A stretch of 64,000 nt of DNA from Candidatus Marinacidobacterales bacterium. GTDB taxonomy: Bacteria > Acidobacteriota > Vicinamibacteria > Marinacidobacterales > SMYC01. Below are positions 16,293 through 58,530 of this stretch, piece by piece (positions within the stretch are counted from its first letter, which is position 1; the number at the start of each line of letters is the position of its first letter). The notes below the pieces were generated by a model that worked only from the letters and a program-made list of their open reading frames with translations, was not told the origin of the DNA and did not search any database. The position numbers and the translations under genes were made by a program. The stretch is from the NCBI GenBank assembly GCA_965237955.1, contig OZ250169.1, positions 2,944,001-3,008,000 of the forward strand. Reading direction: 5' to 3'.

Positions 16293-16824
16293 GCCTGCCA
16301 GCGCCCACTTCGTGAATGGCCTCGGTTAGCAGCAAGCTGCTCTCCGACACTGGCCTCCACCAATCAGCCTCAACCTGGCCCAAATTCCCTGTCATGGTTT
16401 CCAGACTCGGATAGCTCCTTGTACTGGACCGTCTGCGGAGTCATCTTCGTTTCCTCCGTAAAACTCCGCTGGATGAATTCGAGGTTTGGCCAATTCGAAT
16501 TTCGCTATTCGCCTTCTCCTCAGGCGCGATCTACGCGTAGAGCGTCTTCTCTTTGTCTGCGCGATTAAGCGCAAAAACGTCCCGATAAGCCCCAAAATCG
16601 CCCCAAATTGCACACTAAGGGCCTGTTTTGCTCTGTTTCTGATCGTTTCCAGCCAAGAATCGGAAGATCCACTCGAGCCTCCCGACTGCCCTGTGCCAAA
16701 ACTCGACCCATTTGAAATAGGCCATAAATCAGCAGCTTAGTGTCTATGGTGCGCTCCCGTGAACGGCTTGGCGGGTTGCTACGTTTCTACCATAGGGAAG
16801 CCGCATGAGTATTTTGACCTTACG

Positions 16825-19870: not shown

Positions 19871-21299
19871 CGTCCTGTGCCAAAACTCGGCCCTTTTGAA
19901 ATAGGCCATAAATCAGCAACTTAGTGTCTGTGTTTGCGACCGGGCCAAGGGCCGTGGGCTTTACAATCGTCTTGGGCGGGCGGGTCGTCACCATGCAGAT
20001 GACCACCTAGTCGAGAGCGAATATCGAAGCGTGTTCCTGAAGCGGTTTCCACGCTACGCCGGTCGAGCCCGCCGAGGGGCTACCGTCGCCGGCGACCATC
20101 TACGCGGCACGGCAGTAGTAGTTGAGAATGCCCCCAAGTCGCTCTCGCGACACGATGGGGCCAGCGTCATTTGCGCTTGCCGGCAGAGGTGTGAGGAGCT
20201 CGTTGCCGAGACCTTGGTGGTTCCGTTCTGTGTGATAGTGCACTACGTATTCGGTTACCGCTGTCCGCAGGTGTCGCTCACTGAGAGGTACGAAGCGGTC
20301 GAGACACTCTCGACGTATGGAGAGAACGAATCTTTCCGCATATGCGTTCAGATTCGGACTATTCGCGGGAAGGCGCAGGGGCTTCACGCCTGAATCTCTC
20401 AACAGCCCACGTACCGCCTCGGTGAATAGCGGGTCCCGGTCGTGGATGAGGTATCGCTTGCCAAGGAGGAAACCATCCCACATGTCAGTGAGGTTTCTTG
20501 CCACCTGCTTCATCCACTCCCCGTTGGGGTCCGACGTTATCCCACCGATGCACACGCAGCGAGTGGCGATATCGATGACAAACAGGACATGGTAGCGGAC
20601 GAGCCCGAACGGGTTCACAAACCTCGACGGTGAACAGGTCTGTCGCAGCGATGGCGCCCCAATGAGCCTTGATGAAGGTGCTCCACGACATGCTCTTGCC
20701 CCGCTCCGGGGCAGGCGCGATACCGTGCTCGGCGAGGATCCTCTTGATAGTGTTGCGTCCGAGTTCATGTCCTAGGTTCTTGAGTGCGCCTCGCAGGCGC
20801 GTATATCCCCACGTCGGGTTCTCCCGCGCCACGCGCACAATGAGCTCACGGATGTCCTTCGCCGTCGGAGGTCGGCCTGGGCTCCGGTTCTTGCTGCCAT
20901 CGTACTTGGCTGCGATGAGGCAGCGGTACCAACGCAGAAGCGTAGCGGGTGTGGCAACGGACGCAATCTGGGCCAGCGCCTCGCGGCCCAAAGCCTGGGC
21001 CTTGACGGCGAGCCTGCGCCGCTCGTCGTCCGAGAGCCTGAGACGCTTGCCCCGAAGCCCGGCTCGGAGCACACGGTTCTCCTCTTGCTGGTAGTCGATC
21101 ACATCCTGCTGCTGGCGGTTGACCCAGCCAGCTAGAACGAGCAGTAGGAATTGCACGTGGTACGTCATCATGGACCTGAAGATAACACCCTCGGGCCAGA
21201 CGATTGTAAAGCCTGCGGCCCTTGGTCCGGTCGCAAACACAGACACTAAGCTGCTGATTTATGGTCTATTTCAAAAGGGCCGAGTTTTGGCACAGGACG
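19871..21299 (-). mobile_element. Second full A-type rve element; transposase (20100-21171) frameshifted near 20620
   Basis: Near-identical to 4172-5599 with a 1-nt insertion (TTCACAAACC vs TTCACCACC). Confidence 0.88.
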
Positions 21300-54730: not shown

Positions 54731-54914
54731 ATCGGCACCGGCGGGCGTGGGGTAGGTGCCTAGTGGAGCAATCCACAAGGAGCGCCGCCCCCCGTCTTGT
54801 GCCAAAACCTCGGCCCTTTTGAAATAGACCATAAATCAGCAGCTTAGTGTCTATGTTTGCGACCGGGCCAAGGCGACGCAAGGGTCTTGAGTTCGTTTGT
54901 ATTTTTGGACACGA

Positions 54915-55816
54915 GTGCGTCCAGCGAAGGCTGGCATGTTCAGTGGGAGAGAGTCCCACCGGGGAAAAAGTTAGCGCCCCGTAGCTTGAGTCACGTTCGT
55001 GGAGGAAACGAGACGGATGAAGCTGACTGACAAAGCCATCTTGAGGATGGTGAGCGAGTCACCGGGCCGTAACACAAGTGAACCCATAGGTGGCCCCGAC
55101 AAAAAAATAGACCCCAGAGGCCGAGTTTTCTCGTGTCGGACGAAGGCAACAGGGATGTGTCGCCAGACTATCTGATGAGGCACATCCCTCTGGCGGGGTG
55201 GTAGGGACAGCACGGTGACAAGGACATGCCAAGCAACTGGAGAAGCCGTCCTCGTCCCGTCGAGAAATCGACGGAGCAAGGTAGACCGCATAACCGGAGG
55301 CCCCGGGAAAACGGTTGAAGACGAGACGGTGGCGGCTGGGTCCGTAGTAGCGTTGAAACGGGGCAACGCCCGTGGAGCAAAGGGGCCCTGCTGCACACAA
55401 CTCCTTCGTCAACAAGCGAGGCAGGGGTGAGATGACAAAATCACCCATCACTCTGCAGGAGCTGAGATGAAGGATATACGTCAAGGCGAAGGCCGAGAAG
55501 TCTTGGCGCTTCTTGCGCCAAGGTTTCGGCTGGAAGCGATGGAGTAGGCGATGGATGTAGGCGACTGTCGGACTGTTCACAGATTACCGAGTTCGATATC
55601 TCGTAGATTCGCCGAAAGACGCCCCGGCTCGATAGGTCACATAACCCTTCGCGGGAAGTGTGCAGGAGCGCGTAGTGCGGGAAAGCCGCACGCTGCGTGC
55701 GATGTGGCGGGGGCTGGAAACGGACTTACGGTGCGGCTAGTGAGGCACTCCCACAGGAAACGGGGAGAAACAGATAGGCCGCGCCTACGGAGCACCGCGC
55801 CAGCCCTCGACCCTAC
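54915..55816 (+). ncRNA. Group II intron with internally deleted RT ORF
   Basis: 5' GTGCG; domain V ~55667-55700 with GAAA loop; 3' ...GACCCTAC; RT remnant MTKSPITLQELR*RIYVKAKAEKSWRF joined to QGFGWKRWS. Confidence 0.88.
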
Positions 55817-56072
55817 CGGGATTGCAAAACTGCATTGCAGTACTGATTCGATTGGCGATACCTTTATGCAAGGCGGGAACTGCTGACACTTAACTTGGGA
55901 CTGAAGAATTCATTGTGGCTATTGTTCGACAACGTCGACAAAGGCTAGCCGACCAACGGAATTCAGGGGGAGGATTTGGTCATCATCCGAGCGCTCCTTA
56001 AAGCGACGAGAAAGCTGGAGCGTCGGCTTCGCCGAGGTGACTTCGATTGTCGGACGCTGGTGTTCCTAAGAC

Positions 56073-56211
56073 ATGGTGCGAGGAGATCAATCGGGCACAG
56101 TCGGACGTGTCCTATGATTTCGTCTTTGTGGACGAAGAGAGCTTCAACAGATACAGCCCAAAATCATTTGCCGACCTTGCTACCAATTTCCGTCAGTACA
56201 AGGAGGGCTGA
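56073..56211 (+). pseudogene. Type III restriction (Res) C-terminal fragment
   Basis: WCEEINRAQSDVSYDFVFVDEESFNRYSPKSF..L...FRQYKE*; recognised from memory only. Confidence 0.5.
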
Positions 56212-56214
56212 ATC

Positions 56215-57717
56215 ATGACCGCGCCGGTCACCGCCTCAATGCTTTACGATTTGGTTTCTTGTCCGCATCGCGTGACCATGGACCTTTTCGCCGACCAGGC
56301 GCAACGCGATGAGTCAAACCCGTTTGTTCAATTGCTTTGGGAGAAGGGTAACATCTATGAGAAAGAGGTTATTGAGAGGCTGGAAATGCCCCTTACCGAT
56401 CTCTCAATATACGCAGGTGATGAAAAGGAACGGCTGACTTTTGAGGCTATGCATGGCGGCGAACCGCTAATCTACAGTGGACGTATGCAGGCCGAAGGCC
56501 TTCTTGGAGACCCGGACCTGCTGCGCCAAGAGGGTGACGGGTATGTCGCTGGAGATATCAAGTCAGGCGCAGGGGAGGAAGGCTCGGGTGACCTGTCGAA
56601 ACCCAAGAAGCACTACGCGGTGCAACTCGGGCTCTACACAGACATCCTGGAACGTAAGGGCCTTTCTGCCGGGAAACGTGGCTTTATCTGGGATATTGAT
56701 GGCCAAGAAATCATCTATGACTTTATAAAACCATACGGGAAACGGAATCCACGCACGCTCTGGGAGGATTATCAGGATTGCCTCGCCGAGGCCCAGGCGA
56801 TAGTCGGCAAGAGCACGGAGACGCTTGCCGCCTATAGCGGGGTTTGCAAGCTCTGTCATTGGTACAGCGCTTGTATCTCACGCCTAACCGATGCGAACGA
56901 TCTGACGCTGATTCCTGAGTTGGGCAGGTCGAAGCGTGACGTGATGATGGAACGTATCGCAACGATCCGGGACCTGGCCGAGGCTTACCCCGCAGAATTT
57001 GTCACGGGCAAGAAAACGATCTTCCCCGGCATAGGTCTCGCGACTCTAGAGAAGCTGCACGCCCGAGCGAAGCTGATTACGGCGGGGAAGAAGGCCAAGC
57101 CCTATCTCCGCGAACCGGTAACGCTGCCGGTCGCCGATCTGGAACTGTACTTCGACATCGAAGTCGATCCCATGCGCAACATCTGTTACCTGCACGGTTT
57201 TGTCGAACGGCGGGGCGGCGACAACGACACAGAACGGTTTATCACTTTCTTCGCCGAGCAAACAACCGCAGAGGCTGAGAAGCAGGCTTTTGCCGAGGCT
57301 TGGCGCTACATGCAGGAAAGCCAGCCCTGCGTGATCTACTACTACTCGAAGTACGAGCGAACCATCTATCGAAAGCTACGTGAGAAATATCCGGACGTCT
57401 GCAAGGAGGACGAACTGGAGGCGCTATTCGACCCGGTACGGGCCGTGGACCTCTATTCTAATGTGGTGCTGAAGGCCACAGAATGGCCAACACGAGACTT
57501 CTCAATCAAAACACTGGCGAACTATCTCGTCTTTGCGTGGCGCGACACACATCCCTCGGGGGCGGCTTCAATCGAATGGTTCCATAGGTGGGTAGAAACG
57601 GGTGACCCTACGATTCGCCAGCGCATTCTTGATTATAACGAAGACGATTGCCGTGCGACGCGCGTTCTGCGGGATGCTCTTGACAGCTTGATCGTGATGC
57701 CGGAGGGGCCCGGATGA
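56215..57717 (+). CDS. TM0106 family RecB-like nuclease with RNase H-like C-terminal domain
   Basis: GDPDLL, GDIKS, QLGLY, CKLCHW, YFDIE, YNEDDC. Confidence 0.88.
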   Translation: MTAPVTASMLYDLVSCPHRVTMDLFADQAQRDESNPFVQLLWEKGNIYEKEVIERLEMPLTDLSIYAGDEKERLTFEAMHGGEPLIYSGRMQAEGLLGDPDLLRQEGDGYVAGDIKSGAGEEGSGDLSKPKKHYAVQLGLYTDILERKGLSAGKRGFIWDIDGQEIIYDFIKPYGKRNPRTLWEDYQDCLAEAQAIVGKSTETLAAYSGVCKLCHWYSACISRLTDANDLTLIPELGRSKRDVMMERIATIRDLAEAYPAEFVTGKKTIFPGIGLATLEKLHARAKLITAGKKAKPYLREPVTLPVADLELYFDIEVDPMRNICYLHGFVERRGGDNDTERFITFFAEQTTAEAEKQAFAEAWRYMQESQPCVIYYYSKYERTIYRKLREKYPDVCKEDELEALFDPVRAVDLYSNVVLKATEWPTRDFSIKTLANYLVFAWRDTHPSGAASIEWFHRWVETGDPTIRQRILDYNEDDCRATRVLRDALDSLIVMPEGPG

Positions 57718-57950
57718 ACAATACACAGCAAACGCATGACGCTCAACAAATACTCTCCAGCCTGAGGGACCATCTTGCGCGGCATGACAAGCCTATCGCT
57801 TTCTTCTTAGGTGCTGGCACATCTTGTGCGATCAGAGTGGCGGTGCCCGATGACAAGGATAAGACGCAGCCGCTCATACCTGCCGTTGCCGAATTGACCA
57901 AGATATGCCGGGAAAAGGCGCGTGGCTTAGGCAAAAAGTATGAAGAGACA
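57714..57950 (+). pseudogene. SIR2-like protein N-terminal fragment
   Basis: IAFFLGAGTS and LIP...LT; cut by an IS3 end. Confidence 0.7.
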
Positions 57951-58102
57951 TGAACCGCCCCGGGAATCCCGGAGACTGTTTCAGTTGAGTCTCGCCACCT
58001 CGAGCGAGCCTTGTTGCGAGCGATAGTAGTTCAGTTCGTGCTCGACCGGTGGGATGTTTCCGATCGGTTCCAAGAGTCGTTGCGTGTTGTACCAGTGCAC
58101 CC
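57951..58102 (-). mobile_element. IS3 family (IS51/IS6110-like) right end with OrfB tail; solo IRs also at 47061 and 62723
   Basis: TGAACCGCCCCGGG IR; WYNTQRLLEPIGNIPP.E.E. Confidence 0.8.
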
Positions 58103-58530
58103 CGTCCTGTGCCAAAACTCGGCCCTTTGAAATAGACCACAAATCAGCAGCTTAGACGCCCTTGGAATCCGCGCGGAAGCGAGGGTATTTCACGCCGCAG
58201 GGCTGCCTTCCGACCCCGTCCTGTGCCAAAACTCGGCCCTTTTGAAATAGACCATAACTCAGCAGCTTAGCGTCTGTGTTTGCGACCGGCCCAAGGGCCG
58301 TGGGCTTTACAATCGTCTAGCCCGAGGGTGTTATCTTCAGATCCATGATGACGTACCCCGTACAATTCCTACTGCTCGTTCTGGCTGGGTCAGCCGCCAG
58401 CAGCAGGAAGTGATTGTCCAGACGGAGACCGGGCGAACCACCATGGACGCTTCGAGAGCAGGTCCGGCGAATCGCGGAAGCCTGTGGCGCTCCGATTAAC
58501 TAGCCGGTCCAATCGGGCTATAATCTCGAC

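Follow-up and report, generated by a model that had tools for sequence, protein, structure and literature searches.

We describe a group II intron that almost certainly targets the ends of rve-type transposable elements by base pairing between its guide sequences and the terminal inverted repeat. The copy considered here lies in a 64,000-nucleotide stretch of a Candidatus Marinacidobacterales genome (hereafter the window, whose positions are used throughout; places elsewhere are given by contig and position). It interrupts the right-hand repeat of a small non-autonomous element two bases short of its tip, and its reverse transcriptase (RT) has been deleted. Taken as a whole, the evidence makes it probable that this is a non-autonomous intron of the g2 variety, matched through its exon-binding sites (EBS) to the tip of the repeat, which likely retrohomed with a borrowed RT and likely disables the end that it enters.

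Structure of the intron

The intron runs on the forward strand, as do all features of this locus given below, from 54915 (GTGCG) to 55816 (..ACCCTAC), and was delimited at 902 nt by reading the sequence, by an Rfam match and by comparison with other copies in the genome. Both boundary features of group II introns, 5' GUGYG and 3' AY, are present; the 5' exon ends in ...GTATTTTTGGACACGA at 54914, and the intron is followed by CG at 55817–55818. The core of domain I (54941–55077) matches Rfam group-II-D1D4-4 (RF02003) at 120 bits against a gathering score of 49, and RF00029 matches 55666–55816 at 28.2 bits, which falls under its gathering score of 40 because domain VI is long. Domain V (55666–55702), recognised by folding and by RF00029, has the AGC triad, a 2-nt bulge and a 5-nt GAAAG loop, such a loop being a feature of class E and F intron RNAs (PMC3753933). 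Folding also predicts a long domain VI (55706–55816) that ends in AC and carries a bulged A at 55810, seven bases before the end of the intron; domains V and VI together fold with z = -3.65.

EBS1 (TCGTGTC, 55131–55137) is placed by the consensus fold and by covariation in the 9-nt loop of the Id3 stem-loop (55125–55141), and is complementary to IBS1 (GACACGA, 54908–54914), whose last base is the A of the terminal ACG of the repeat. EBS2 (AAAAATA, 55103–55109), likewise in a domain I loop and placed by homologue alignment and covariation, is complementary to IBS2 (TATTTTT, 54900–54906) in the T-run of the type B inverted repeat. A single-strand fold had put EBS1 in a stem (z = -0.09) and was overruled by the consensus fold of 30 homologues, in which the 9-nt loop tops a covarying stem. 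The preliminary description of this locus had given coordinates for the intron, the CG, both EBS and both IBS, all of which proved exact when the sequence was re-read, and its placing of EBS1 in a stem-loop agrees with the consensus fold, which sets EBS1 in a domain I loop.

Domain IV holds what is left of the RT (55432–55602): 27 codons from the N terminus are joined at about 55512 to the C-terminal tail, and two in-frame stops interrupt the reading frame. Compared with an RT-bearing relative of 2,010 nt (L014), about 1.1 kb of RT is missing, so that only N- and C-terminal remnants survive of the RT that the preliminary description had called deleted. RNA-library contigs (X15–X18) cover the intron; a splice or circle joint is absent from these contigs, which cannot show absence.

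The host element

A pattern search found 884 element ends of five types (A to E) in the genome, 161 of them of type B. The ends lie in clusters within a few megabase-scale regions, and about 60 of the genome's IS481-like ends fall within the window. Types A, B and E terminate in ACG, types C and D in ACA. A ends flank a 1.43-kb insertion sequence (IS) with an rve ORF, of which 20 copies are of intact size, while the window's B end has its match in an intact IS-B at C1:8.061–8.063 Mb, at the end that lies upstream of the transposase. The invaded element is not a transposase-bearing IS. End patterns identify it as a 124-bp non-autonomous hybrid, with a body (54793–54914) that runs from a left A-type end (CGTC..) to a right B-type end and is completed by the CG at 55817–55818; flank comparison identifies this CG, the start of the 3' exon, as the terminal CG of the B end, with the intron standing between it and the remainder of the repeat.

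The transposases of IS-A and IS-B exceed the cut-off of PF13683 and score 101.6 and 101.8 bits on the IS481 model NF033577, which does not reach its cut-off of 224; judged by these scores, the family is IS481-like, of rve type, and unclassified. It resembles the IS481 family (PMC10045372) in having a single rve/DDE ORF and short terminal repeats, with related ends here reading TGT..ACA, and differs in the CGT..ACG termini of the A and B elements, in the score of 102 bits against 224 and in that no target duplication was seen. Duplications of 5–9 bp were present at 0 of 1,709 end pairs, none was seen in the 20 intact-size copies of IS-A, and no peak of duplication length appeared from 11 to 300 bp. 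Among the ends of this genome, neither a duplication of 3–9 bp, nor one split over distant ends, nor a left and right flank pair mapping to a single empty site was found. Adjacent deletion and recombination may account for the missing duplications, or the mechanism may be duplication-free; PMC11708052 offers a comparison for ends without target duplication. Each end is apparently joined to a target of its own, with an apparent preference for GGNT at A and B ends. Two other views of the ends were given up: that they are attC-like sites, since they were found to bracket rve ORFs, and that the terminus proper is the ACA inside GGACA, since the five bases that follow do not vary in A and B ends.

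The outside flank of the window copy (55819–58102) recurs next to another copy of the intron, at C1:2.041 Mb, as far as an A end at 58103. It holds a RecB-like nuclease ORF of the TM0106 family (56215–57717; TIGR03491, 228 bits), followed by a 79-aa ORF that has no Pfam match and is cut near the A end at 58103; this block (56215–57953) has been duplicated along with the intron. Elsewhere in the window, a DUF2924 gene occurs in five near-identical copies (14125, 26724, 32607, 39658 and 63012), each just inside an A end.

Copies of the ORF-less form

This genome contains three full copies of the intron (99.3–100% identity) and 33 3' remnants, and its 24 distinct 3' flanks all start with CG. Two 3' remnants apparently lie in the window, where an E end at 16824 is followed by the last 73 nt of the intron and an A end at 19871 by intron-like sequence. 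The 902-nt form recurs at 98–99% identity in other genera and in a second family, with any intron match present in at least 14 of 41 genomes. An identical RT-deletion junction was found at 20 distinct 3' flanks (18 with near-copies merged) in seven genomes of five genera, and 12 of the 13 distinct 5' exons of the close lineage (at least 97% identity over the first 60 nt) are B ends. Other RT deletions occur in the lineage at L013, L041 and L043 and at C1:886 kb.

An intron-free B end stands in front of four of the 45 intron flanks tested in this genome (G000). One of these is a strict filled and empty pair, in which a copy in G033 and the empty end at G000 C1:4201419 have 225 nt of 5' flank and 326 nt of 3' flank in common; the other three are 3'-side pairs, and all four flanks belong to copies that bear the deletion junction. 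Together with the covariation and the relatives in other phyla presented below, these pairs bear out the earlier proposal that the intron homes to rve-element termini by EBS/IBS pairing.

Part of the spread is plainly passive and not homing, since copies 1 and 3 have 2,286 nt of 3' flank in common, up to an A end, and one remnant occurs nine times in the genome with a single flank. Lagging-strand orientation was observed at 15 of 24 intron sites, and among B ends at large the figure is 105 of 161, in regions that are heavily rearranged. Copies of the ORF-less form have also been invaded in turn, one (L040, G012 C9:853.6–855.6 kb) by an apparent group II intron without duplication and another (L027, G015 C1:1.062 Mb) by an IS with an overlap of roughly 10 bp.

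The missing reverse transcriptase

With its own RT deleted, the intron would need an RT in trans, as the preliminary description had pointed out. A search of this genome (98% complete, in one contig) with PF00078 gave five RT matches, none cognate and about 31% identical to the cognate type, and the RT remnant used as query matched only itself. No cognate RT was found in the seven genomes that carry the ORF-less form, where the best intact matches are 33–40% identical; cognate RT occurs as fragments only in G018 (88%) and G012 (65%). Across the 13 genomes searched, an intact RT of the cognate type is found only in G009 and broken ones in G013, G017 and G293, and no RT-bearing copy at 98–99% identity was among the matches listed from searches of 41 and 301 genomes.

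The genome's own RTs were considered as helpers and set aside: as far as the available text of PMC4615759 goes, RmInt2 was not mobilised onto its own target by the RTs of related introns, and because these are far closer to it than resident RTs of about 31% identity are to the cognate type, the latter are unlikely to have served. Two further group II introns of this genome deserve mention in their own right. One (L003, at G000 C1:373.2–375.2 kb and also at C1:881.6 kb and 466.2 kb) is unrelated, with an RT 31% identical to g2, and begins right after the terminal ACG of E-type ends in three of four 5'-intact copies, so that there the end would stay whole; it has ORF-less derivatives of its own and forms tandem arrays in G018. 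The other (L001, G000 C1:559.4–560.9 kb) has an open RT ORF and lies inside an rve transposase gene.

From these comparisons it seems very likely that the ORF-less form was mobilised in trans, and the most likely helper is a transient cognate RT, the present copies being now probably immobile. The strongest competing account confines homing to the time when the ancestor still had an RT; the ORF-less form would then never have retrohomed, and would have spread as a passenger through IS-driven duplications, and through recombination or gene conversion that carried it onto sites occupied earlier by RT-bearing copies. The lack of a cognate RT in the seven carrier genomes is what this account would expect, as are the flanks common between copies and between genomes and the two in-frame stops in the remnant, and most remnants in this genome are too short to tell whether they are ORF-less. 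It fits poorly with a near-identical form at 18–20 3' flanks and 12 B exons, with empty-allele flanks that come, all four, from junction-bearing copies, and with the failure of an RT-bearing copy at 98–99% identity to appear among the matches listed for the 41 and 301 genomes. We therefore regard it as unlikely, and favour mobilisation in trans.

Fate of the invaded end

The preferred reading is that the intron disables the invaded end at the DNA level, and this is likely on mechanical grounds: 902 bp separate the repeat from its terminal two bases, and an interrupted DNA end is beyond repair by RNA splicing, so that the end would be dead. DDE transposases require the repeat to adjoin the cut site. 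In this genome, no B end reads ..GAGT followed by foreign DNA, as a rejoined end would, and there is accordingly no sign that invaded ends are re-used; the intron's 3' end is also unlike the repeat. All of this counts against the proposal that the transposase tolerates the insert or cuts elsewhere, with the intron hitch-hiking on a live transposon. In favour of that proposal, the intron occupies the same end of two complete IS copies in G302 whose flanks differ, which could reflect co-transposition, and the flanks of these ends are generally reshuffled. Empty ends are also present in G302, however, so that separate homing events explain its copies, and we consider a usable end improbable.

Remnants of the intron are one-sided, 33 keeping the 3' end against a single close 5' remnant found, which is the reverse of the usual pattern (PMC5894124). 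The terminus of another element lies exactly at the break in 13 of 22 truncated sites, and IS interiors erode likewise, with 20 intact among 464 A ends. The likely cause of the one-sidedness is adjacent deletion by ends inside the element, which spares the outside flank.

Register of insertion

Insertion falls at GA|CG, so that the terminal ACG is split after its A. The preliminary description had placed the intron two bases inside the end, and this holds because the CG is element sequence: where B-end targets were mapped to unoccupied copies, CG preceded the joint in 0 of 32 cases. Were the CG instead a 2-bp target duplication, the intron would sit exactly at the tip and the end would be left whole, an idea that gains something from the palindromic nature of CG and from intact IS-A copies that read CG..CG without other duplication. 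Beyond the B-end count, CG preceded the joint at only 32 of 136 A ends mapped in the same way, and related ends of the form TGT..ACA are split at A|CA by relatives of the intron, which together make a duplication very improbable.

Guide pairing and covariation

EBS1 and EBS2, as assigned in the preliminary description, are genuine guide sequences by the measure of their covariation with the exon across homologues. In 48 distinct EBS1/IBS1 combinations drawn from 85 loci, a mean of 6.2 of 7 positions pair, against 3.35 when shuffled and a maximum of 4.1 in 10,000 shuffles, while for EBS2 (62 combinations, tandem copies excluded) the best-5 Watson–Crick count averages 4.06 against 3.18, with none of 2,000 shuffles as high, figures that are not p-values since kin are not independent. 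EBS2 is without a role in the in vitro self-splicing of IIE and IIF introns, according to the available text of PMC3753933. When homologues are tabulated by 5' exon, EBS1 changes with the end sequence: end-type sites alone show 17 distinct EBS1, with 6.3 of 7 Watson–Crick pairs against 3.4 when shuffled.

In this genome EBS1 pairs at all seven positions with 108 of 144 canonical B ends and with 0 of 458 A ends, and the full IBS2+IBS1+C site occurs 117 times, 108 of them at B ends. Two full copies (L028 and L034) have an EBS1 mismatched to their own exon at one position, and one (L010) is without a B exon. Seven-nucleotide matches are common, and the IBS1+C 8-mer occurs 528 times in the genome, but covariation well beyond the shuffles, the share of B ends among full sites and a single register at all 24 sites reduce chance complementarity with ectopic insertion to a negligible prospect. 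At L030 (G012 C11) and at G000 C1:6.212 Mb, a g2 intron of more distant kinship (73%) has another exon, ..CTTCACCCATGC or ..CTTCCCCCATCC, with matching EBS.

Relatives and classification

A search with the intact L014 RT as query gave 545 confirmed loci, of which the best 80 were taken as relatives. Among these best 80, the end-type relatives follow a T-rich run and a final A and are followed by CG or CA, and they span at least four phyla (Acidobacteriota, Pseudomonadota, Gemmatimonadota and Myxococcota). RT-bearing relatives keep the same register, A|CG or A|CA, with a retuned EBS1. On the 5'-exon side, 13 of the 19 end-type sites have an rve ORF no more than 650 nt away, compared with 0 of the 19 domain-V control sites (p = 1e-5), the end-type sites having been chosen by eye on the motif and L062, which has no rve match, standing outside the 19 (13 of 20 with L062). 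Several relatives occupy complete elements, in which the opposite repeat is also present: in G293 a complete 1,318-bp homologue of IS-B has in its right end an RT-bearing, frameshifted intron with the EBS1 of the window copy; in G302 a 1,152-bp CGT..ACG IS has introns in either end, besides intron-free ends; and at L092 the complete element measures 1,156 bp and has TGT..ACA termini. Left-type ends are used by the window lineage, right-type ends by L021 (second copy), L032 and G293, and both by G302. In three of the four genomes probed by pattern search (G301, G303 and G304), only the invaded copy of the site was found.

For a second set of relatives the insertion site is a single position within domain V of other group II introns, and their EBS1 matches it. 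In the RT tree, the introns that target domain V fall in a clade of 31 rows (SH-aLRT 99). Outside this clade the end-type introns form an unresolved grade, to which three or four Bryobacterales rows also belong whose sites are not recognisable ends; the tree leaves out L073, L099, L096, L100 and L001, its root rests on long branches, and some labels come from the 3' exon or neighbours only (domain V for L091, L095, L102, L108 and L110; end for L061 and L064). The domain-V clade comprises L050, L052, L071, L075 and most of L078–L125, copies being numerous in one alphaproteobacterial MAG and in Burkholderia.

The RTs of the relatives group with B.th.I3 (SH-aLRT 100), with 48% identity against 35% to g3 and 31% to g1, in a quick class tree that has one reference each for g1, g2 and g3 and is without classes D and E. 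FADD replaces YADD in all seven relatives compared, a motif that is deleted in the window copy and is not diagnostic alone, being present also in the non-g2 RTs L002 and L003. A 461-aa relative ends 43 aa past its TIGR04416 match, and NCBIfam gives no nuclease match, which indicates that an endonuclease domain is lacking. Assigned through these full-length relatives, the window intron belongs to variety g2, class F as broadly understood. The endonuclease-less g2 introns (PMC3552965) include B.th.I3, with which the FADD-bearing relatives group, as well as Ma.sp.I2, Sg.ce.I1, W.e.I5 and Mx.xa.I1, and the Ma.sp.I2 locus has an N-terminal motif in common with the relatives here. In its available text, that paper describes two g2 members in transposase genes and no target specialisation on IS termini or domain V, and the literature that we searched, mostly open-access, yielded no report of g2 introns at IS481-like termini or in domain V.

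Comparison with known systems

The habit described here has a published precedent in RmInt2 within ISRm17, and each of its ingredients has a precedent; the present case is a lineage-wide version in an unrelated intron. The inverted repeats of ISRm17 both serve as targets for RmInt2 in Sinorhizobium meliloti GR4 (PMC4615759, PMC5894124), just as left and right repeats are both used by the intron lineage here. RmInt2 is a class D, RT-bearing intron of one strain and one IS with demonstrated mobility, whereas the intron here is g2, ORF-less, distributed over five genera and known from sequence alone, with relatives that are retuned to many ends, in one register, across at least four phyla.

The TeI3 introns of Thermosynechococcus elongatus, which are ORF-less and mobilised in trans (PMC2882425), present a similar picture of one RT deletion, N- and C-terminal remnants and proliferation at well-paired sites, with one family in IS and one in other introns, as among the g2 introns here. 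They differ in class (CL/IIB1) and in having their driver RTs in their own genome, whereas a cognate RT for the present intron was not found in its genome, and a single form is shared across genera and families. Class IIC-attC introns (PMC4424553) are likewise a lineage specialised on the recombination-type site of another mobile system. They have a class C RT, lack EBS2 and insert at attC motifs, none of which applies here; the present intron has a g2 RT, an EBS1 and EBS2 that covary with linear sequence, and a DDE transposon end next to an rve ORF as its target.

Proposed mechanism and significance

What is observed at the outset is a set of precise boundaries, guide-target pairing in one register, a single RT deletion at many ends, and empty alleles. 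By the known biology of group II introns, a ribonucleoprotein would reverse-splice into the repeat and, there being no endonuclease, cDNA would be primed at the replication fork. The RT may have been supplied by an RT-bearing g2 intron, such as those in G009, G013 and G293, that was present only transiently, a transient donor being invoked because none was found in this genome, and the present copies would be immobile and copied as passengers. The invaded end would then be dead, splicing offering no rescue for a DNA end, and neighbouring IS ends would subsequently delete the intron from its 5' side. A wider picture can be offered only tentatively and is rather doubtful: a g2 branch might have tracked a very widespread, unclassified IS481-like family across phyla by retuning its guide loop in one register (A/C of the terminal ACR), with a protein-less satellite that crosses genera within one community on a transient RT from other species and acts as an RNA-guided brake on some 900 ends, and with a related clade aimed at domain V.

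For an ORF-less bacterial intron, a related RT is almost always present in the same genome, the contrary case being called exceptional in the available text of a 2015 review (PMC4424553); the present intron, ORF-less and at many sites in genomes that yielded no cognate RT, is that exceptional case. The end-type relatives, with 17 distinct EBS1 in one register, provide a natural set for asking how retroelements retune base-paired specificity to an evolving target, a question to which the related clade, with domain V as its target, adds. The finding also bears on whether group II introns limit the spread of IS, a limit that for RmInt1 has reportedly been argued from poor splicing and that here would act on the DNA end itself.
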